A stretch of DNA of 41,956 nt from Dirinaria sp. TL-2023a (taxonomy: Eukaryota): contig JAVEBF010000036.1 of the NCBI GenBank assembly GCA_051941275.1, positions 1-41,956 of the forward strand. Direction: 5' to 3'. A program made the translations under genes and the position numbers. Under the pieces are notes generated by a model. It ran no database searches. It was not told the origin of the DNA and was given only the letters and a program-made list of their open reading frames with translations. Each line of letters opens with the position of its first letter. Position 1 is the stretch's first letter. This document shows, piece after piece, positions 23,001 through 34,809 of the stretch.

Positions 23001-23411
23001 TTCAAGTACCGAGGCACAATCTTAACATTCAGGCGCTGCTGGTTCTGGTACTCAACCACCAACGACAGGTCAACAATATCATTTCCGTAGGCGTGACATG
23101 GCTCTCCTGCAAGCGTGAGATCCGCTGTGTAGCCATGTGCAGTGGCTTCAACATTCAAAGCTTTATAGCCAGGACATAAGTCCTGAGCGATAGGCGCTGT
23201 AGGATCAGAAATGGTGGGTACTAGACTAGGGGCGGCATTAATAGAAGTATTGAGTGTTGGAATTGGCGTAAAAAGAGGTGATGTTGGTGCTAAGATACAT
23301 CACAGTCAGAAAATCATTGCTTGGGAACTGGAGCCACTGACTCTGTGCCAAAGAAGGACGTGCTAGCCACAGAGAAGCGGCTACTATGGTAGCGGTTCCG
23401 AGGATTGCCAT
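20069..23411 (-). CDS. Secreted glycoside hydrolase family 31 alpha-glucosidase (AgdA-like), multi-exon
   Basis: Signal peptide MAILGTATIVAASLWLARPSLAQ at 23411; CPGYKA, NLYGTHP, GYHQCRWGY, IWNDID; nucleophile region GIWIDLSEASSYCVGSCG; acid/base HWGGDN; RWMQLSAFFPFYRNHN; LYLDDGES. The exact 3' end is less certain. Confidence 0.95.
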
Positions 23412-25434
23412 GGTGGATTATATAGTAGTCTACGACGCTGGATGGCGACAACAGCTTCCTAATTAAAGGTCGTGGAACTTTTTTCATGGAACTCCAGGGC
23501 AATTTGCGGGGTAAAGTACATCAGCAGAACGACGTAAGAGAATCATTAGACTAGATACCTTACTTGATCAGAGTATTGAAAGCGGGGATTAGTGACAAGC
23601 TTATGCGGCCGGAGAGACTGAAAACAACTTCTTGAACGAGTTCAGCCTATCTTAGAATCAGTGGGGCATGTCGAGCGGGGTAACTTGACCTGCCGACCCC
23701 AAAGTATTTTTGAAGTACCGATGGCACATAGCTATTAAGAATAGCGCCACGCGAACAGAACATTTATCAAAACAAATAAAATTAAAACCCATGCTCAAGG
23801 TTAAATCAGGAAAGCTGTTGAGATCATAAAAGATGAGGGTGCCAGAGGTATTTTAAAAAAAAAAAAAAAAAAGGACGATGATGCCGTCGCGTCGCAGCCA
23901 ACAGAGAAACTAAAGAATCATAGCCACATTCCCACATCAGCTGGAACAGCCATCATATATCAGCAAATCTTTCAGAAGAGCACGTCGCACTGACAATGCC
24001 CTACGAAACAAGCGTGACGAAAGAGCAGCAGCAAATAGCGCAAGAAGATCCTTATGCCTAGAGAATACATCCTTCGACATACTCGATAACCAAAAGCTAG
24101 GTATGTATTCCTTCTTCAGAGAGAACTTCGCTCTGCAGCGCAGATCAATCGTGCCCATGGACCGGTGTTTTCTCAGCATGACGAAGACTTAGAGAGCGTC
24201 TCTAGGAGCTCAGCAAAGCCGACATTTCGAAATCGTGGGGGCGGGGGCTCATTCATTAAAAGTCGTCTTTATGGAAAAATGGGCTGTTGGCCGTTTCAAG
24301 CTGCAGAAAGGGGTAGGATCCGCTTCGGCTTCGATCAAAAGCGTGCCGATATCGGGAGAGCCAAGCTAGCACACTTCAGCTCCCAATCAGGGACGACCCA
24401 AACACCACGCGTAGCCAGGGCTTTGCCATATGCCCTCGAAAGAGTGTGTCTCTAGTATTCCGTACAGAAACGAGAACTGCAGACATATTCTCCACCATTC
24501 CCGACTTGCGTACTGTCCAGCTTGACTGATTTGCCATTTATACTGCTCTTCTTGGCGAATTGACTCGCACTTCGCAATGACCCGTGGGCTGCGAAGAGAT
24601 TCTAGTGTATATTCATCCACCTCTTTCTTGATCCTGCCACCTCTTCACGCTTCGACGTATGGCGTGAACGTTAATCCCAGGTTATACGCAAGCAGTGCGC
24701 AGGCAATCTGTTGGCAGGGGTGATAACGCCTTGTCCTTGTGGAAGACGTGCGTTACTCTAGGTGATCTGAGACCTTTATCCCTCGCCCAACATGGCTCCA
24801 GTAAAAGGTTTGAATTTTGTCGAGGTACGCGACATTCATGGCGCTAAACGACTGTATCACTAGCATTAGACACTGACTGTGGAGCGCATCGAAGACCAGT
24901 CGCTGGACTTGGATCTTGGGAAACCCTTGAGTAGTGTGATGAGGAGAAGAGTCAAGATTTTGGTTGGAAGCGTGAACGGACAAGAAAAGATCGGCGATTT
25001 TGCTCCGATCCGGGCTCACGGGCCGTGAAAAAGGCGCTAACCAACTTGAGCTAGAGACACATTGGCAGGATTTAGGCAAGCACGTCTCTCGGCCAGACAT
25101 CAATAATGATTGACCTCAGCGTACTCCGTAAACATGTGACAAATTAATCAGATCAAATCTGTCACTCATCACGTATCGCACATAGTCTTCAAAACTCCTT
25201 ACAATGAAGGCACGCGCCGCGCCTTGGCGATAGAAAAGACCAGTACAAAGCCTCTCTCGCTCGCACGAGAAACAAACAATATGCTCATCTCACAACCTTA
25301 TCGCGCATGACTTAGAGCGCGCGTATCAATGGCGACTCACGATACTCGACAGCCGTCGAGCAAATATGACTATCTATGGTTATTTTATAAGATGGGCCAA
25401 TTTGGAAATACGCTGCAACAAAGAACTGGATAGT

Positions 25435-25918
25435 ATGAATATTCTTTCGTTTTTTTCGTTCTGATCTTCGTCACGCTAAATACTTATTTTATTGCTACAT
25501 CTCTAAATCATACCCTCGCTTCCTTCGCCCGATTCGAATGTATGGAACCCGTCTCGTTTCGCTTATCTCGTAACGGCTCTCTCAAAAAGTGCGCTCGCGC
25601 TGTCATCACTGGATTTTCATTGAGATGCTCATCGGCCTGTTTCATCATGGTGGGCCCTATGACTTCTTCCGCCTCCCAAGATCTCACATCGAGGGAGACT
25701 GCCAGGTCACTGTTGACCTAAATGCTGGAGAGCCTGTGAGGGGCTCGTGGAACGAAGTCTGGACGATGGCAAACATGTTGAGTACGGCTCGTACGTACTA
25801 CAGAGTTCATCAGGAACCTACCTCTGCTGTCACTGGAGGGTGGATCAGTACGAATGGGGTGGTTCTAATCCTACAGAAACCAATGCTGGGGAATGAGACT
25901 GCGGTAGCAGTTGAATGA
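25435..25918 (+). pseudogene. Small secreted Cys-containing protein, apparently with two frameshifts
   Basis: ATG at 25435; hydrophobic signal FVLIFVTLNTYFIATS restored by a shift in the T7 run at 25450-25456; then FECMEP...KKCARAVITGF; a second shift near 25615-25622 leads into FHHGGPYDFFRLPRSHIEGDCQVTVDL...SWNEVWTMANML...TGGWI. Confidence 0.6.
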
Positions 25919-28188
25919 GTAAGGATCGTTAAGAAAGATCATGATCCTGTTTCGCGATTGCATTCATTCGGTTTAGGCTCAATTTGTCTAAACCAAGTCG
26001 TACGATATAGTGAGTAGAGAAGGAAATATTTTGCGCGTAGAGTGGTGTCTGGAGGTGCTCTTTTATGTTGGGATATTGATTCTTGAAAAAGGGCTTGAAA
26101 TTTGAATTCGAGTCCTGTCGATTGAACTCAAGTTTCGCCGAAAAAACAACAATTCAATCTATGAGCATCAGTAGTGCTGTGGCTTCCGGACTGTCTTGAT
26201 CCGTCCGGCGTCCACTAAATGAGTTGTTTGATACTTAAAAATTCAATTGTCAAGTCAGGGCAGAGTCTGCCGAGAGTTTTCATGCGCACGTCGCACAGAT
26301 GAGACAGAGAACAAAACAAGAACTCGAAAAGAAAGAAAATGCTAAGAGTCTAAGAGGTACGTCAGTGCGCGACGTAAATCAGTCCTGTAAGATGTATTGA
26401 ATATTGCTCCACTGCTTAATGCCAGTTCTAGCTGCGCTCAATCTTGCATCGTCAGCACTACTATCAAGTGAAAAGTTGCTCAAAACTATGAGTGCTAAGC
26501 CAAGGTTACGATGGTCGATGAAGAGGAAACAATTCATGGCCCCAACAACAAGTTGGCGAAGTTTCAAACTTCTTGAGACTCAGCTCAGTATGATAGAGAG
26601 TAAATTATCACCTAATCGATGCTTCCTTAAATACATACTAGTGAAGCTGCTTAGCCAATTTCCAGATCAAGCTGCCTTATAAGATCCGGCTCCGTTTCCT
26701 CGATACTCCATGACTTCGCGTTTTTGTCTTCGCCTCTCTGAAGAGAGAATAATTTTCCTACGACGAGGGACTGAATAATTCTGGAATAGCACGATCGAGG
26801 TGTTTCAAAAAGAGCCAGGGCCAAAAGAACGAAAATCGCCTGTACGGAGAGTTTGGAAGAAGTAAATCTTAAGGTAAGATACATGAACGGGCTTCAAGCA
26901 CCTGAAACCCTTCCACAACCCTAGACTAGTTGCAAGGTTAAATTCTATCGCAAACGTCTTCCAACCAGCTCCGTCGACCTTACTTCGTACCCTCCAGACG
27001 AAAATGCCTCCACAGCCGCACACAGAAGAGTTCTCTGGCTCAGGCACCGAATCAGATACCCTCAACCAAGATCATTTCGGCTTCGATCCACAATTAGCCA
27101 GAGCCTGACCAACCCTTCCCCTAATGTAAATCTCGACCAAATCCGCAGTCTTATCAACCCCCCGGTCGCGAACATCGAGCGTCATGGATATCACGTCTGC
27201 ATCGACTGACATCGCCTATAATCCTCGCACGCGCCGAAATCGTTGAGACATGTTAAGTCTTATGTCTCGATATTGTGTTCGAGGTTGAGAAGATGCATGC
27301 TCAAGGCGGGCGATCCCAGATAGGGTACAAGTGGATCTTCTAAAACGGAAGAGAAGAGATGGCAGGGAAAAAAAAAGATGGTTTCTACAATCGGATCCCT
27401 GCGTGGATGCCGCTTGAGCATTTTATGAAGAGGAGTGAGTGGTTCTGGTTAAGGATCCGGGGCTCATCGATGCTGAATACAGAGGGTTTCGATGGATGCG
27501 ATGTCGAGGAGCTGAGATATTGAGAATGTACCTCTGTTGCAGAGTTTAGTGTTGGGCAGAGCGAGGCTCGTAAACATGTACTAGTACTATTCACGGCTAT
27601 GGTCTTGGGTATGCAGGGTCAGGGAACGAGCTGGGACGGGCTTTCGGAGCAAGAAGCAGGAGAAAGTAGAAGGGGAAGAAATAGTTGGACGCGGACTTTG
27701 GCCGACATCTATATGCAAGGGTATCGATCCTCTAAGTACAGAATAAACATGAGCGGTCTTTTATCTATGAGTCATCTTTTTTCGGTTCCGATCGCTTGCC
27801 AATGCACCAACACCGTTCCATTTTCGCTAAATGCAGGACGGTGACGATTCATTTGATACAACTCCAAAGCTTTTAATAGACCGCGAAGCAGAGAGCATAG
27901 ACTAGCCCCACATGTCATATCCCAAAAATATGATACCTTGAATGTCAATATTTTTTTTTGCAGATTACCTCCAGCATGAGAAGACGAGCGGTACTTTGGG
28001 CGAAGAGCTGAACCAGTGCACGAGAGGCAGCGAAGTCTGCCTTAAGCGTGCCCAATTTGTGACCCCTTATGTTTTTTTTTTTGGAAGGCAAGAGACTGTT
28101 ACGTACTCAACGAATTAAAGATCGAGGAAGGAGGAGAACTGTCATCATCTAAGTAGACCTGGAGACGGCGATCGCCAAGCGTCCGTTC

Positions 28189-31100
28189 TCAATCCGGGTC
28201 GTCATCATACCACGGGTTGAGGGCTCCGAGCATGTGCTTCCAGATATTACCATCCCACGGGGTTGTATCTACAATGTCCCTATCAAAGATTAGTCAAGGT
28301 TGCTATGCATTGGCACAATCAGACTGGGCTGCTCACATATCATCGGCTTGTAAGCCTAGCCCATGATCCAAGTGTTCAAGACGGGCCTTCGCTTGAGGAT
28401 CATCCCCAAATCGAATAAACTGTATGCCGACGTGTTCCTTTAGCAGTCTATGCTCTTTCATGCTTTCAACCAAGGATTTAATCACTGGTCCCACATCGCT
28501 CTGCGGCTGCCATCTTCCATCTGTGAGGACGTAGAAGCTTAAAGGTCGATGAGATTCGGCACGACGAGGTTTCCACTTGTACCACGACTTTGAAGGAGTT
28601 GTGGTGGTGCCGAATTTGGCAATATGCTCTTGTAAAATCTGACCCAGTCGGGCTCGCATGTTGGAGATTCCCTGGAATGGTGCCCGGGACACAGCCATTG
28701 AAAGATCTGTGGATTTCGAAGAATGAGCCGAATGTGTTGACTGAGTGAAATAAACGTCCAGGCCATTGGGATCCGAGTCTTTCACTATATACCCTAGCAG
28801 TGATACAACGCTGATAGCATTATTGCGATGCGGTAACATGGATTTGGTATTGTCGATGACGAAGATCTAGATGTTACATTAGCAAGGTCCAGACCGAGTC
28901 TGGTTGATGGGCTGAAGCACTCACGTGATCTCGTATGTTCAGGCTCGACAAATTTTCTTCGCCATGCAGCGGATCGTGAAGGCCTTGCTTTTTATTCCTC
29001 TTCCATCGCAGACCTTCGCTCAAAGATACATGGGGTGGCTTTTCTTCGTGCTCTTGAGCTTGAGATTTTGATGAGGTCGGGTTATCTGCGGTTCGGGACG
29101 ACGTTGCGCCATCGCTGTTTAGTGAATCTGCTGCTGAGATATAATTGGAATGATCTCGAGTAGGCCTATTTGAAAAGTGACTGGACGTCCTCGTGGTGTC
29201 TTCCGCGAGTCGGTGTCCTCGCAGCGGCGCATGCTTCGCTGCGCTACTAGGTCCACGGTCCAATTGTTGGCTACCTATTCCTTGATGAGTACCTCCTGCG
29301 TGGAACGGAGATAGACTGCTGGCGTCGGTATCTGATGAATGGTAAGAGAAAGCAGGACTAGGTGGGTCAGGCAGATCATGCAGAGTATTCGAGCCAGAAT
29401 GAAACGGTCCGAATGATTCGTCGGCTACCTGGGCTTGGTGATATCCATTGACTGTTTTCATTTGATGCTGGCGGTGTGCTAATCGAGTCTGTAATTTCGG
29501 AGTGTCCCTTTTCGTCCGGTTCCAAGACAATGGCCGTGGGAATAGAGGAGCCTCAATATCTCGGCCTGTGGTCTTGTGCGAAGGCTCCCCAGATTTGCTC
29601 ATGTACCCAGGTGGAACATTTGGAGGTGTTATTGGTCGCTCTTCAAAGTCACTACCGTGCTCTGCCTCTTGACCATGCCTCGAAGAGTCTCTTGTTATGC
29701 TGATCCCAATTGTTTTACGCGTCGTGTCGATGATGCGTGTAGACTCCGTCAAAATATCTATTGCGGAAGCACGCTGCTCATGTTCATTCAGTAGCATCTT
29801 TTTATTTACGAGCTGCAAGATTTTAACAATGACCCGATGGATCAATCGAGACGTGTTGGCAATGTGTTCGTGTGTCTCTCGCACCGTTCGCAGCACGTTG
29901 TGCTCATCATGGAACCATTCCTCTCCAGAGAGATCGAGATGCTCGTGAATCTCATTTGTTCGGCGACATCGATACTCAAGCAGGCGATTCCAACCAAAGC
30001 GCGACCAGACAGCTGCCTCGCTGAACACGCAGCCCATGGACCAAATGTCGACATTCTGTTTCACGGATACAGGAACGGGATCAATCCTACGGTCGGACCT
30101 GAACGTCTCTGGAGCACCTACAGGAATTTTAAGCCGTCGTTCTGCAAAGGATAGGGATAATTACCGTAAGCTCTGGTACCAACGACGTCTCGATCAAAAT
30201 CTTGATTGTGAGTGAAATGACACGAAGTTAAATCCGCAAGCTTGAAGTAGACGTCATAGCTCGAGGTTCCACTCCCACTCATGATGAGTATGTTGCCAGG
30301 TTTGATATCTTGATGCCATCTAAATCCTTTGTGAGCTATAGTTATGTGCGAAAAGGGGTCGAAGCAAGGCATACCCAAGCAGGCGGTCTCGGTATCCATG
30401 GATAACTGCGAGGCCGTGTGTGATCTTGCAGAGCCGTTCCCAAAGGGCTATCATATCTTCTGGGGTAGACGGAGGAGGCGTGACCCTCATGAAATTTTCA
30501 AGATTCCCTTTATCTGCATATTCCAAAATGATATTGTAGGTGTCGTCGTCAATGAAACTTCCGTAGTAGGCGACGATGAAGGGAGAGGGCTTGCCATCGT
30601 GTCTAAGGATTTTGAATGCATTTTGCTCGTTTTTGTGCTGTTCTTTAGCATCGAGGCCACGGTACGTCTTGAGGACGAAAGTATTTTGTAGGTCTGGGGG
30701 ACGTTCCTGTGGCAGCATTAATTATCTGAAGCGTTGGTTGGGGATCTTCGTTCATACCGGCATCTGCCAATGGTGCGGCACTAGCTTGTTGTATTCCTTA
30801 TCGACAACAATCTTGAACACCTTTGCATTTCCTCCCCACCCAATCTCCTCCTTGTGTGTTATTGGTAGTATCTCCTCTTTATGAAGATTAAGATCCATGT
30901 TGTACTCGAGATCTGCAGCGCAAAATTGCCATTGTTCGCTATGAAAACGGTCAAAAAGGTTAGAATCCGATGAGCGGGGAAAATCTTCAGGCCGGGTCCG
31001 AAATGGCAGGCGGTGATCCATTAGACTAAGGTATCGAACGAAGACCTGGATCATGGGACCTTGTCCAATCAATAACAGAATTGCTAGCGGTCGAAGGTAG

Positions 31101-31333
31101 TGTTCTCGAACGTATTGTGCGTCTACATTTTTCACGAATAGAGCTGCGAGAAGGCGCTCTACACGCTGGTTGGCTCCGAGATACTCCTTGACAGCTGAGA
31201 AAGGGATGAAGTGGTAAGGCGTAGCATGGTTTGAGCCTCCAATGCCGGGGCGCCGCGTTGTCGAGTGCCACCTCAGGAAAGCCTGAATTTCGCTATCGTG
31301 CTCTGCTTGGATCTCCGCGTAGATCTCCGCCAT
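28189..31333 (-). CDS. Protein kinase-like domain + disordered linker + C-terminal vWA domain, multi-exon
   Basis: Kinase motifs across exons: G-loop IGWGGNAKVFKI, FVLKTY, alphaC EQNAF, ILEYADKGNL, HQDIKPGNIL, KLADLT, GTRAYGAPE, DIWSMGCVFSE. vWA: IFVIDNTKSM (MIDAS-like), YVLTDGRW, IQFIRFGDD, final exon DIVDTTPWDGNIWKHMLGALNPWYDDDPD* (stop 28189-28191). Confidence 0.9.
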
Positions 31334-31977
31334 AATCAGGTGCAAGGGATGCGGCTAGGGGCATAGAGTCAGGGCTGGCCAGCGACAGGTGTATAGAACG
31401 GGTTATTGAACTTCTACATCGTGGATATAGGGCAGGGCCAAAGAAGCGATGGATGGCGAAGCACGTCGGGTTCTGCCTGGTGCCTCTGCCCCTCACTTCA
31501 GCTTGGCGCATACACGCACCACCTCTGCACAAGGCTGATTGGAAGCTTGCTGAAGACGCTAACATGAAAGAGGAAATCGCTTTTCGAGAATCGCGAAAAG
31601 ATAGCGGTGTATCGATCAGAAAAGCTTGTTACATAGTCGGATGCAACTAACTATTCATGTAACGTGCGACCTCTTCTTCAAATCCGAGCATTTTGGCGGA
31701 CTCGACTGCCGAACGTAAGACTCACACAAGATTCACCCAGTCTGGCGCTGCCGGGTTCAGCATGGTGCATTAGTGCGGCTCAACCATGGGTTGGTGTGAG
31801 GAAATCCTTATATCATAGGCAGTGCAGCTGTCTTGGTCCGCAAACCGCAAATTTGCTGCCCATCTAAGTAACCTCGACGCCTTAGTCTTGCTCGATCACG
31901 ACTCGTGTTCTCATTCCTCGTTGTAGGTTCCGAGCCTGTACAAGCGTGACGGGAGACTGCCCGGTGCTCACGCAGCA

Positions 31978-32352
31978 ATGCCTGAGAGAGTCGACCCAAA
32001 TGCCTACTGGCGATACGATTATATCCCAGGGTACGATTTGAACGAAACGATCATCGCCAGGTTTTTGAAGGAAATTTGGGGCAATTACAAGTATTTTGTC
32101 GAGGTCAGTCATAGTAGTGTCGCACGCTATGCGCGGCAGGCTTTCCCCGCCGGAGCCGTACCCAGTGGCACAGTCATCTGACTTTCCTTTATCTAGCGCT
32201 CCGGCGATGATTTCCGATTCTGGGTGCCTCGCAGACTCCATGAGGTGTGTGTGTCGCACGACTGTGGCTAGAGACACTATCCCCTGATTCTCCTCGCGCA
32301 GCATGAACAAACCGAGCTGTTGGACCGCCGCGAGCCAATGTATCATTCGTAA
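31978..32352 (+). CDS. Spliced 74-aa microprotein between the kinase-vWA and CorA-like genes
   Basis: Exons 31978-32103, 32197-32244 and 32302-32352, joined by two phase-0 GT..AG introns with CTGAC/CTGAT branch points. Product: MPERVDPNAYWRYDYIPGYDLNETIIARFLKEIWGNYKYFVERSGDDFRFWVPRRLHEHEQTELLDRREPMYHS. Confidence 0.75.
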
Positions 32353-32737
32353 ATGAGAAATGGCCTTACGAAGCATCCAACTTGGGCGACTGTGTGGGTG
32401 GCACTCGTATGTCGGGAATGGCAAAGGCGTGGAAGGATAGGCTGTGCTTTCATTTTCGCGTTCCTTGCAGAGCATTAATATTGTTATTATGTTCGTTTCT
32501 CGTTTGCTGGCTTTAATTTGGTGGAGTGGGCCAGCTGAGCTGCGTTGGGGCGCAGCAGGCTCTGCATTGAGCCATTCCTGGGATATGGCGGGGCACATTC
32601 GGGGCTTTATTGCTCCAAGGTGAGCTTCAACGATTGATGATCATTCTGATGAATATAAGTACGGTCGCACGCTAAAATCTTGATGAATACATCAACCCGT
32701 CTCATCAGGCAATGATATTGTTGCTACATTGACGGCG

Positions 32738-34809
32738 ATGGACGAAGTGACGGCCTTGTGCCAAGGTGCCAAGACCTTCCCTCTCAACTTCAACCAGCCT
32801 AGCGCTTTCCCTTACCATCAACGTCTCTATCAAACTTTGAATGAACACGCACCGAGACTCTTTCGATCGGGAGAAACCTCTGCCCTAGATTTTCTCGAGC
32901 TCAGTACAAGGGGAAAAGGTTGGCATATCTCGACGTCCCACCATCTTGGCTTGAACGCTCTGACACAGACCGCAGATTTTTGGCCCAAACGTGTGACAAC
33001 TGAAGGCCAGCTAAGGACGCACTTGGCCCTTGATGCCCCTTCGAGGAGTCCCGACCCACGATGCAGGTTTCTGTAAGTTTACCGAATGAGTAATCAGACG
33101 GCCGTCCGCTTATATTGTCCTAGATTCGTTCAAGCGATCAATGGCATCTCCCGCCAGAAGCTGCAGACAACCCGAGAGATGCTTATGCTGTGCTTCACCT
33201 ATTTTCGGGTCATGCCCGAGTTCCTTGACTTCTTGTTCTCCTTTGGATATCAAGCTCGTGCCCAAGATCCTCATTTTGGCAGCTTCCGTCAGCGAACATG
33301 TCTATCCTCTCCAAGCCAGTACTCTAATGTCCAGGAACTTGCTTGGTCAGGTGTCGAGATATCGACATGCTACAATTTAAGATCGCCCGAGCGCTCTGGC
33401 CCAGGTCCGAATGACTGGTCAATTCGACTTTGCGCCGTCCATCACACATTGGATTTGAATAAAGTACGGTCCAACTGGATTGTCATCAAGGGCAACGACG
33501 TCTTAAAAGATCGTATCGAGCAGGCGACCTGTGACAACAGCGGTACAGGAGTTTCATTATTCGACACCCTCGACAGAGCATTTGCTGGGTCGCTTACCAC
33601 GCACCTGATCTTCTGCGATTGGGCTGTCGAGCAATGGCGCTGGTATATCAACAGTCTTGACGAACAATTTCAAAATTCGTCTAGAAAAACCCTCACAGCA
33701 CCGGTGATATTTCTGTCACGTCGGCCAGGAGCAAACGATGACTTCGCGATGCCTCCTCGCACGGAGACCGCGTTCAGCAATAGGTCAATCTTGGGCAACT
33801 TATCTCGCGCTCAAACAATGTTGGCGGAAAAGCTCTCGGTCAGAAGCACAAAGCCCAGAACACGCACCGAGCGGATATCCAGCGATCTCGAGAGCGGTCT
33901 AAGTCAGCCACTGCCGCCTCACATCACTGCTATCAATAGTCCTGATTCAGCTCCACAATCACCGCAACAGAGTTCCGAGCGTGCAGAGGAGCAGGATTTC
34001 TCTTTTTCCAAGCTGCAGAAAGTTCAGCACATCGAAGAGAAGGCGCATGAGGCTCTGTTAGCGATGAGATTGAATACGGGCGTCATCCGCCAACTGAAGG
34101 AGCATTATAATACCATTGTAAAGCTGAGACGGTTTCCTCAAGATATCCATCAACTATGCCAAGACGATCTGGAGCAGTTCGAGCTCCGGATCAACGATAT
34201 ACTCGGTGGTCTGGAAATGCAGATTATAAGACTGGAAAGCTTGATACGACTGCTCCAAGATCGCAAAACTCTAGTAACTTCCATTGTCCAGTCGATGCAG
34301 AACGCCCGGCTAAGACATGATCAGCTTCAAAGCATTCTTGAGTACTATAATACCGAGTACAACAAGCAATCGACCAAAAACATGATGTCGATGACTGACG
34401 ATATGAACGACATAGCGCGGAAAACGAAGATTGAAACGGTCTCAATGAAGGTTATCACAGTCGTCACTCTCTTCTTCTTACCCGGAACCTTTATTTCCGT
34501 AAGTGGCCCTTCTCTTTATCAGAATTTCATCCCCTTGAGCGAAGACCGCGAGCCTCTGAATGCTGTGTGCTGACGATTCCGAACTCCATTTAGACGCTCA
34601 TGAGCACCGATATATTCCAGTCAGGAGACCAGAAACTCGGAGGACCAGACCCTTATGCTCATTATTCTCCCCTTCAGATCTATCTAATTGCGAGCCTCCC
34701 ATTGACCCTCGTGACGATACTAATCTGGGCGGCTCTTCACTGGCTGGAAAAACACGAAGAAAATTTCAAAGCACAAGCCCGTCGGCGTATATCTTCTCTA
34801 ATGGTCTGA
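32738..34809 (+). CDS. Fungal CorA-like protein (soluble alpha/beta domain, long helices, two C-terminal TM helices), multi-exon
   Basis: VMPEFLDFLFSFG, CYNLRSPE, WSIR..AVHH, WIVIKGN, THLIFCDW...WRWYI, long helical stalk, then ETVSMKVITVVTLFFLPGTFIS|TLMSTDIF and a second TM IYLIASLPLTLVTILIW. Introns at about 32919-32975, 33073-33123, 34274-34324 and 34499-34593. Confidence 0.88.

Follow-up and report, generated by a model that had tools for sequence, protein, structure and literature searches.

Positions 28189-34809 of contig JAVEBF010000036.1 from Dirinaria sp. TL-2023a (the whole 41,956-nucleotide stretch is called the window here) hold three adjoining genes, coding for a protein kinase with a C-terminal domain that is probably of the von Willebrand factor A (vWA) type, for a microprotein of 74 amino acids (aa) and for a CorA-like membrane protein. 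The best reading of this trio is a CorA-type channel without the G-M-N motif, which has a dedicated small partner and is possibly regulated by the adjoining kinase-vWA protein, whereas an immune role, as proposed in a preliminary description of the locus, is unsupported. The partnership is suggested by single reading frames that join the microprotein to the CorA-like N-terminus in other fungi, and the regulation by a gene order that recurs in four further genomes. These two observations are what is new here; the kinds of component are already known.

Gene models of the trio

The window consists of DNA of the ordinary Pezizomycotina type, with short GT-AG introns. The trio and its parts are laid out as follows:

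28189..31333, minus strand: kinase-vWA gene; spliced model of 6 exons, 958 aa
28189..28866, minus strand: probable vWA-like domain of the metal ion-dependent adhesion site (MIDAS) type, aa 753-958, exons 5-6; from its motif and weak converging evidence
29990..30853, minus strand: protein kinase domain, aa 161-397, spanning introns 1-3; Pfam PF00069
31334..31977, no strand: divergent spacer of 644 bp between the kinase-vWA and microprotein genes, putative shared promoter region
31978..32352, plus strand: microprotein gene; exons 31978-32103, 32197-32244 and 32302-32352, 74 aa
32353..32737, no strand: spacer of 385 bp from the microprotein stop codon to the CorA-like start codon
32738..34809, plus strand: CorA-like gene; exons 32738-33072, 33124-34498 and 34594-34809, 641 or 624 aa
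34439..34749, plus strand: membrane part of the CorA-like protein by hydropathy, with transmembrane helix 1 (TM1, FFLPGTFIS, split by the last intron), the MST[D/E] loop and TM2 (about 34666-34749)

The preliminary description had called three intact, tightly packed genes, and its coordinates and spacings proved exact: all three genes and the spacers of 644 and 385 bp were recovered at the same positions, with one probable change inside the CorA-like gene. Its kinase domain, its spliced 74-aa gene and its CorA-like membrane protein likewise hold on the evidence given below, the last at the level of the fold. The exons of the kinase-vWA gene (31333-30758, 30706-30375, 30319-30165, 30117-28925, 28866-28337 and 28279-28189 on the minus strand) are separated by GT-AG introns of 47-58 nt, and the spliced model is residue-identical over its full 958 aa to the NCBI protein Q9191_000621 of Dirinaria sp. 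TL-2023a (P0121).

The two lengths given for the CorA-like protein depend on a segment of 51 nt at 34274-34324 (GTAACT...CAG, an in-frame GT..AG), which falls in the region of the stalk helices. The segment is absent from nine spliced homologue models, and its equivalent, of 18-23 codons, is retained in 55 raw open reading frames (ORFs) among the stored CorA-like homologues. Judged by sequence, it is probably an extra intron that splits exon 33124-34498, in which case the protein would have 624 aa, not 641. Since the segment is in frame and free of stop codons, retention of this intron would add 17 residues to the stalk.

On either side of the trio, 4.9 kb (23300-28188) and 2.1 kb (34810-36955) contain no Pfam-matching ORF of at least 60 aa among the 40 ORFs scanned, and these empty flanks, which may comprise unannotated genes, decayed repeats or regulatory DNA, weakly support a compact three-gene unit. 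A minus-strand ORF of 252 aa at 31882-32640 was set aside as spurious: it has no Pfam match and overlaps the conserved exons of the microprotein gene.

The CorA-like protein has a predicted CorA fold and lacks the G-M-N motif

The large exon of the CorA-like gene returned 279 homologues at E≤1e-3. The label PF26616 is carried by all 120 of the matches listed (of 279), including the ORF of the window itself (P0001), and one UniRef name among the homologues reads 'CorA-like transporter domain-containing protein'. This label is a precomputed one; the profile is absent from the Pfam copy that was scanned, so the scan showed nothing. The CorA-like family PF01544 gave no match even at E≤1 in P0001, P0086, P0045, P0104, P0111, P0041 and P0119, a sequence search of P0086 against PDB returned nothing, and a literature search for PF26616 found no paper.

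The fold was tested on the full-length orthologue from Letharia lupina (P0086, 47% identical) rather than on the window protein. Its AlphaFold2 model has a mean predicted local distance difference test score (pLDDT) of 67.9 overall and values of 84-93 in the N-domain, with a disordered insert of about 100 aa between the cytosolic helices. Searching this model against PDB with Foldseek yielded 59 matches at E≤1e-3, and those listed are all CorA, with TM-target values of 0.47-0.56, the best having an E value of 4.1e-8, a probability of 1.00 and about 545 aligned columns. Because the listed matches are all CorA, the fold assignment is sound, and the product of the third gene is firmly predicted to be CorA-like at fold level. 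Its layout comprises a cytosolic alpha/beta N-domain, a disordered insert rich in Ser, Thr and Pro, long stalk helices and two C-terminal TM helices.

Two hydrophobic segments agree with the claimed membrane location, the hydropathy windows of the 641-aa model lying at aa 551-556 and 595-603. The residues of TM1 are nearly invariant across 26 homologues. In these, the G-M-N motif is replaced by MST[D/E], the consensus being FISxLMSTxIF and the window sequence FIS-TLMSTDIF. In canonical CorA, G-M-N lies at the end of TM1, an equivalence of position rather than of alignment, and the TM1 motif F-L-P-x-T-F-I of the window protein resembles the one in CorA. With G-M-N replaced, canonical Mg2+ selectivity or uptake is not expected.

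Within the insert, the motifs SQPLPP and DFSF (P0086 residues ~350-354 and 385-387) are invariant or nearly so across the same 26 homologues. These islands in an otherwise poorly conserved, disordered stretch are candidate docking or phosphorylation sites.

A conserved microprotein is joined to the CorA-like protein in other fungi

We searched exon 1 of the microprotein gene (42 aa) against representatives of 1.84 billion proteins and obtained 30 representative clusters at E≤1e-3, five of them at or below 1e-10. In 18 of the 30, residue 1 of the exon aligned to residue 1 of proteins of 47-103 aa. The exon-2 motif GD[DEQK][FY][RK]FWVP recurs in P0136, P0137, P0146, P0150 and P0154; the exon, in a form like GDDFRFWVPR, follows a read-through intron in P0136, P0137, P0150 and P0154 and is properly spliced in P0146, and at least four further representatives read exon 2 in another frame. 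The spliced models P0146 and P0027 both contain the junction between exons 1 and 2, which confirms it. No Pfam match was found for the gene, and its profile found none in PDB. By its conservation, the 74-aa gene is real and represents a conserved small-protein family with no match to a known family.

The link to the CorA-like protein comes from fusions. In P0147 (residues 52-99) and P0155 (58-93), one ORF runs from the microprotein domain into the CorA-like N-terminus, and the CorA-like part of these proteins matched P0086 in BLASTP with E values of 2e-11 and 2e-5, and exon 1 of the window gene with an E value of 4e-6. A search of 159 stored proteins with the microprotein profile found the domain also in one of the CorA-like matches, the NCBI model P0027 from Heterodermia (hidden Markov model E 1.2e-25), which opens with microprotein exons 1-3 and passes from there into CorA-like exon 2. 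P0027 is probably a merger of two genes; even so, it shows for a second genus that the microprotein gene immediately precedes the CorA-like gene. The numbering of the locus tags in Psora and Brigantiaea allows for a single gene between the kinase-vWA and CorA-like genes.

A complex prediction for P0086 and P0146 scored 0.37 in all three runs, compared with 0.02 for the best of three controls; at least 76% of contacts recur between runs, and the partner has a pLDDT of 81. The mark reached by this prediction is also reached by 51 of 78 solved complexes and by 2 of 108 mismatched pairs; for values up to 0.60, it is reached by 5 of the 78 solved complexes and by all 4 of the mismatches that passed (of 180). 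The modelled complex is thin evidence alone and lends weak support in the same direction as the fusions. Taken together, it is likely that the microprotein and the CorA-like protein act together.

The kinase-vWA protein

In the kinase-vWA protein, a conserved N-terminal region (aa 1-160) is followed by the kinase domain, a linker of ~270 aa rich in Ser, Pro and Thr, and the C-terminal vWA-like domain; a hydrophobic segment was looked for in the protein and none was found. Eight orthologues align from end to end at 46-60% identity. For the N-terminal 160 aa, the scores in the ESM Atlas reached at most 0.78 and were uninformative, although the region is conserved among the orthologues.

The kinase domain of P0121 matched PF00069 with an E value of 4.5e-22 and 79.1 bits, well above the cut-off of 31.7, and PF07714 with an E value of 2.4e-8. 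Seven of the eight orthologues passed the PF00069 cut-off; P0123 fell below it at 28.7 bits, and its gene model is gapped there. A profile built from the eight matches kinases in PDB, NEK7 and RIPK1 among them, with E values from 2e-14 to 7e-10. Conserved across the orthologues are the beta-3 Lys in FVLKTY, HQDIKPxN, ADL and GTRAYGAPE, with HQD in place of HRD and ADL, which supplies the metal-binding Asp, in place of DFG. Given that the catalytic Lys, the HQD-x-K-x-x-N loop, the metal-binding Asp and APE are all kept, the kinase looks catalytically active by its sequence, and the assignment of the domain itself is firm.

The vWA domain that had been claimed for the C-terminus stands in part: its MIDAS motif is kept, whereas the Pfam gathering score is missed and Foldseek gave no match at E≤1e-3. 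PF00092 matched only P0123 out of nine proteins (E 0.028, 15.1 bits against the 23.8 required) and did not match P0121, and a phmmer search of the vWA exon against PDB returned nothing relevant. An AlphaFold2 model of this exon, built from a 9-sequence alignment, is of low confidence (pLDDT 55.7). With this poor model, the best of the sub-threshold Foldseek matches was the MIDAS domain of MDN1 (E 0.12, probability 0.90), followed at lower rank by TEM8, integrin I-domains, factor B and Rpn10. ESM Atlas features of the domain score 0.94 and 0.93 to VWFA clusters carrying PF00092, PF13519 and PF10138, and in two nearby clusters the last of these, vWA-TerF-like, is carried by 48% and 13% of the members.

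The D-x-[ST]-x-[ST] motif (IDNTKS) and LTD are conserved in the orthologues. As mapped by reading the sequence alignment rather than a structural one, the MIDAS-type residues D757, T793 and T867 never vary, either Ser or Thr occupies positions 759 and 761 in every sequence, and the Asp D868 is kept in seven of the eight and replaced by Asn in P0124. Thus, the C-terminal ~200 aa probably form a vWA/MIDAS domain, on converging lines of weak evidence with no single proof.

A 413-aa protein in ENA (P0129) has a 44%-identical vWA-like domain followed by an unrelated helical region. As it lacks a kinase, the vWA-like domain is not confined to the kinase fusion.

Conserved adjacency and proposed regulation

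Homologues of the kinase-vWA protein were sought with the vWA exon, which returned eight kinase-vWA proteins, including that of the window, and one vWA-only ORF. The presence of the CorA-like gene in each species was judged from the 120 matches listed of 279. On this basis, both genes were listed in four of the seven kinase-vWA species other than that of the window. Unlinked homologues had been named as an outcome that would speak against the preliminary description; in all four genomes the two genes were found adjacent, 1-2 locus tags apart on the same contig:

Psora testacea: kinase-vWA Q9217_005105, CorA-like Q9217_005107
Brigantiaea leucoxantha: kinase-vWA Q9190_006661, CorA-like Q9190_006659
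cf. Caloplaca sp. 1: kinase-vWA Q9220_002075, CorA-like Q9220_002076
cf. Caloplaca sp. 3: kinase-vWA Q9219_000722, CorA-like Q9219_000721

Together with Dirinaria, the linked genomes span Caliciales, Lecanorales and Teloschistales, all within Lecanoromycetidae.

We propose a reading in two layers. In the first, which is fairly well supported, the microprotein and the CorA-fold protein without G-M-N form one functional unit. The microprotein would most likely serve as a subunit or regulator on the cytosolic side, binding to the N-terminal cytosolic domain of its CorA-like partner, a site proposed because the two are covalently fused at exactly that position in some fungi. In the second layer, the kinase-vWA protein would regulate this unit, a step that we infer tentatively and consider a good possibility, short of probable. 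Here the MIDAS-type vWA domain would dock or sense a divalent metal, the kinase would then phosphorylate the Ser/Thr/Pro-rich disordered insert of the CorA-like protein, and the output would be a regulated ion flux or membrane permeability rather than canonical Mg2+ uptake. The short divergent spacer, the insert with its invariant islands, and a MIDAS domain as a natural device for docking or metal sensing make such regulation plausible. Binding, phosphorylation, channel activity and the physiological role are inferred throughout, from gene models, a kinase domain, a CorA fold, microprotein fusions and an adjacency that are themselves observed. Both layers together, as a conserved neighbourhood of lichen-forming Lecanoromycetidae, are offered as a tentative account that may hold but falls somewhat short of an even case.

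Several points weigh against this account. The count of four adjacencies in four genomes is a raw one and may reflect background synteny. A CorA-like homologue is listed for 16 named species, and 12 of them gave no kinase-vWA match; among the 12 is Heterodermia, which of the named species listed has the closest CorA-like protein (68% identity). Conversely, Kuettlingeria, Pyrenodesmia and Variospora have a kinase-vWA protein and no CorA-like protein among the 120 listed. The vWA call misses the Pfam threshold and its structural model is of low confidence, and the complex prediction for P0086 and P0146 is weak, cross-species and alignment-free.

Moreover, all linked cases lie in one subclass, so the adjacency may be merely inherited. 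In that case, the pair of microprotein and CorA-like genes would be real, and the kinase-vWA gene an unrelated neighbour whose position has stayed unbroken within Lecanoromycetidae. We regard this as possible, if on balance doubtful. Besides the restriction of all five linked genomes to the subclass and the 12 species with a listed CorA-like gene and no kinase-vWA match, it is favored by the finding that none of the 159 stored proteins fuses a kinase or vWA domain to the microprotein or CorA-like domain. Inheritance alone accounts less readily for an adjacency kept in all four genomes with both genes listed, across three orders and at protein identities of 46-64%, or for tight, divergent spacing within the trio next to long and empty outer flanks.

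A kinase gene also adjoins a distant CorA-like gene at another locus (NYXK01000079.1, 1-17584; L001), the only one returned by a scan of prokaryotic genome contigs, which likewise speaks against inheritance alone. Here, the CorA-like gene shows 27% identity, and after it, on the same strand, comes a protein kinase gene. The contig is filed under a metagenome-assembled genome of Deltaproteobacteria and contains fragmented ORFs, a fungal-type family-2 heme-thiolate peroxidase, a DDE_3 transposase and a methyltransferase alongside the eukaryote-type kinase and the CorA-like gene; it is probably a mis-binned fungal contig. No microprotein domain was found near its CorA-like and kinase genes. The kinase was considered as a kinase-vWA orthologue and rejected, with 23% identity to P0121 and no vWA domain. 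A resemblance of its pre-kinase region to the N-terminus of the kinase-vWA protein (hhalign probability 10.5%, E 0.003) was too weak to be used. Lacking a vWA domain, arranged in tandem rather than divergently, and a single post hoc case, this locus is a point against the two-layer proposal as well as for it; it is anecdotal and does not amount to a test.

Should the kinase link be true, the trio would represent a eukaryotic vWA/MIDAS-kinase switch that controls a CorA-fold output. If it is false, the pair would still be a small new two-part system, with the microprotein as a new conserved small-protein family. In either case, a fungal CorA-like family without G-M-N, which here bears only the label PF26616 and has no known function, gains a conserved 74-aa partner and a kinase-vWA neighbour, and these turn binding, phosphoregulation and ion flux into testable hypotheses for this membrane protein.

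Two genes or one transcription unit

The microprotein exons might instead be alternative 5' exons of the CorA-like gene or a conserved upstream ORF, so that the locus would hold two genes, not three. This is suggested by the same-strand arrangement of the two genes at a distance of 385 bp, by the single ORFs of P0147 and P0155, and by Heterodermia P0027, which joins microprotein exon 3 to CorA-like exon 2. A splice equivalent to that of P0027 is available in the window, from a GTATCA donor at 32339, four codons before the microprotein stop codon, to the acceptor at 33123/33124, and it is in frame. We nevertheless consider one unit unlikely. The microprotein ORF ends in a conserved stop codon of its own, the third of its exons is retained in Heterodermia, and the intron required would measure ~780 nt, against 47-95 nt for all others here. 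The splice would also remove the first CorA-like exon, although P0039, P0045, P0086 and P0104 all conserve it, and P0027 is in addition truncated at its C-terminus and so looks like a poor gene model. Splices from microprotein exon 1 or 2 to the nearest acceptor before the CorA-like ATG (exon start 32709) were rejected, since this acceptor is out of frame. The 32339-33124 junction could reflect an annotation artefact or else a fused isoform, made by alternative splicing without CorA-like exon 1.

Relation to known systems

The nearest structural relatives are in the CorA/MIT superfamily (Thermotoga maritima CorA), with which the window protein shares the alpha/beta N-domain, the long stalk helix leading into TM1 and the second C-terminal TM helix. 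It differs in having no PF01544 match, 9-11% identity to the structures and MST[D/E] in place of G-M-N, and proteins of its type have the disordered insert of ~100 aa and a dedicated small partner. PF26616 itself covers uncharacterised fungal proteins, and the links to the microprotein and to kinase-vWA appear in no description that we found. Our literature search, with supplements outside its scope, found no description of PF26616, of a fungal kinase-vWA protein or of this trio.

The preliminary description had read the trio as an immune, allorecognition or cell-death module, in which the vWA domain would sense, the kinase would switch, the CorA-like protein would be the effector pore and the microprotein an adaptor, substrate or inhibitor. 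Of this reading, the tie of the microprotein to the CorA-like protein is upheld by the fusions, and the immune module is not; what speaks for it are analogies to the systems below, and we judge it very unlikely. Fungal allorecognition and cell-death loci are often made up of a few closely linked genes, one of them for a membrane-targeting protein, as in the gasdermin/protease pair het-Q, and in this the trio resembles them. The trio contains no domain that defines such loci, and its orthologues are conserved across orders: Pfam scans of the trio, its homologues and 82 ORF pieces of the window found no HET, NACHT/NB-ARC, HeLo/HELL, gasdermin, protease or PP2C domain. The orthologues look like single, 1:1 copies, 46-79% identical and kept across three orders, with catalytic and MIDAS residues intact. 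By sequence comparison, such a pattern fits ordinary purifying selection; allorecognition loci would show presence/absence variation or hyper-polymorphism instead.

In bacterial TerY-P triads, a TerY-like vWA protein, a PP2C phosphatase and a Ser/Thr kinase form a hypothesised metal-sensing phosphorylation switch, which can act in phage defence (PMC11090510). The trio shares with them a vWA/MIDAS domain and a Ser/Thr kinase, and PF10138 occurs in the two Atlas clusters mentioned above, which is a point for the immune reading. In contrast to the triads, a single eukaryotic protein combines vWA and kinase here, the window has no PP2C, and the kinase has neither a Zn-ribbon nor an OB fold. PADLOC gave no TerY match for P0121 or the vWA exon and no match to a CorA model, and the kinase matched the generic models mad6 and PD-T4-6 only; an NCBIfam scan returned nothing useful.

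A CorA-family membrane protein is also the effector of some type III CRISPR systems (PMC10600005, PMC12255297), where it is the output device of a signalling system and is activated by SAM-AMP (PMC10600005). The fold is all that it has in common with the window protein; the effector is prokaryotic and tied to Cas10 and to NrN or SAM-AMP lyase, none of which occurs here. Among fungi, a CorA-like PF01544 gene of Morchella importuna, mimpvic32, emerged from bulk-segregant analysis as a candidate for vegetative incompatibility; it is unvalidated, barrages also form between strains with the same alleles, and its Pfam family is a different one (PMC8940278). A further analogy is that Pkinase is one of the 12 N-terminal domain classes of fungal NOD-like receptors (PMC4986451).

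A bolder version of the two-layer proposal would see here an undescribed regulated pore of filamentous fungi, in which a CorA pentamer without G-M-N is gated by the microprotein and switched by the head-to-head MIDAS kinase, as an executioner that permeabilises membranes or a stress valve in lichen fungi. We consider this quite improbable; if true, bacterial vWA-kinase switches and CorA effectors would have a counterpart in eukaryotes.

Other genes in the window

Further genes of the window code for proteins with a fungal rhodopsin domain, a HAD hydrolase, a uracil phosphoribosyltransferase (UPRTase), an epimerase, a methyltransferase, an F-box protein, a GH31 glycosidase and an amidase, with no obvious tie to the trio. 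The rhodopsin-domain gene (PF20684, E 1.7e-15) occupies 648-2591 on the plus strand, at the window's left end.

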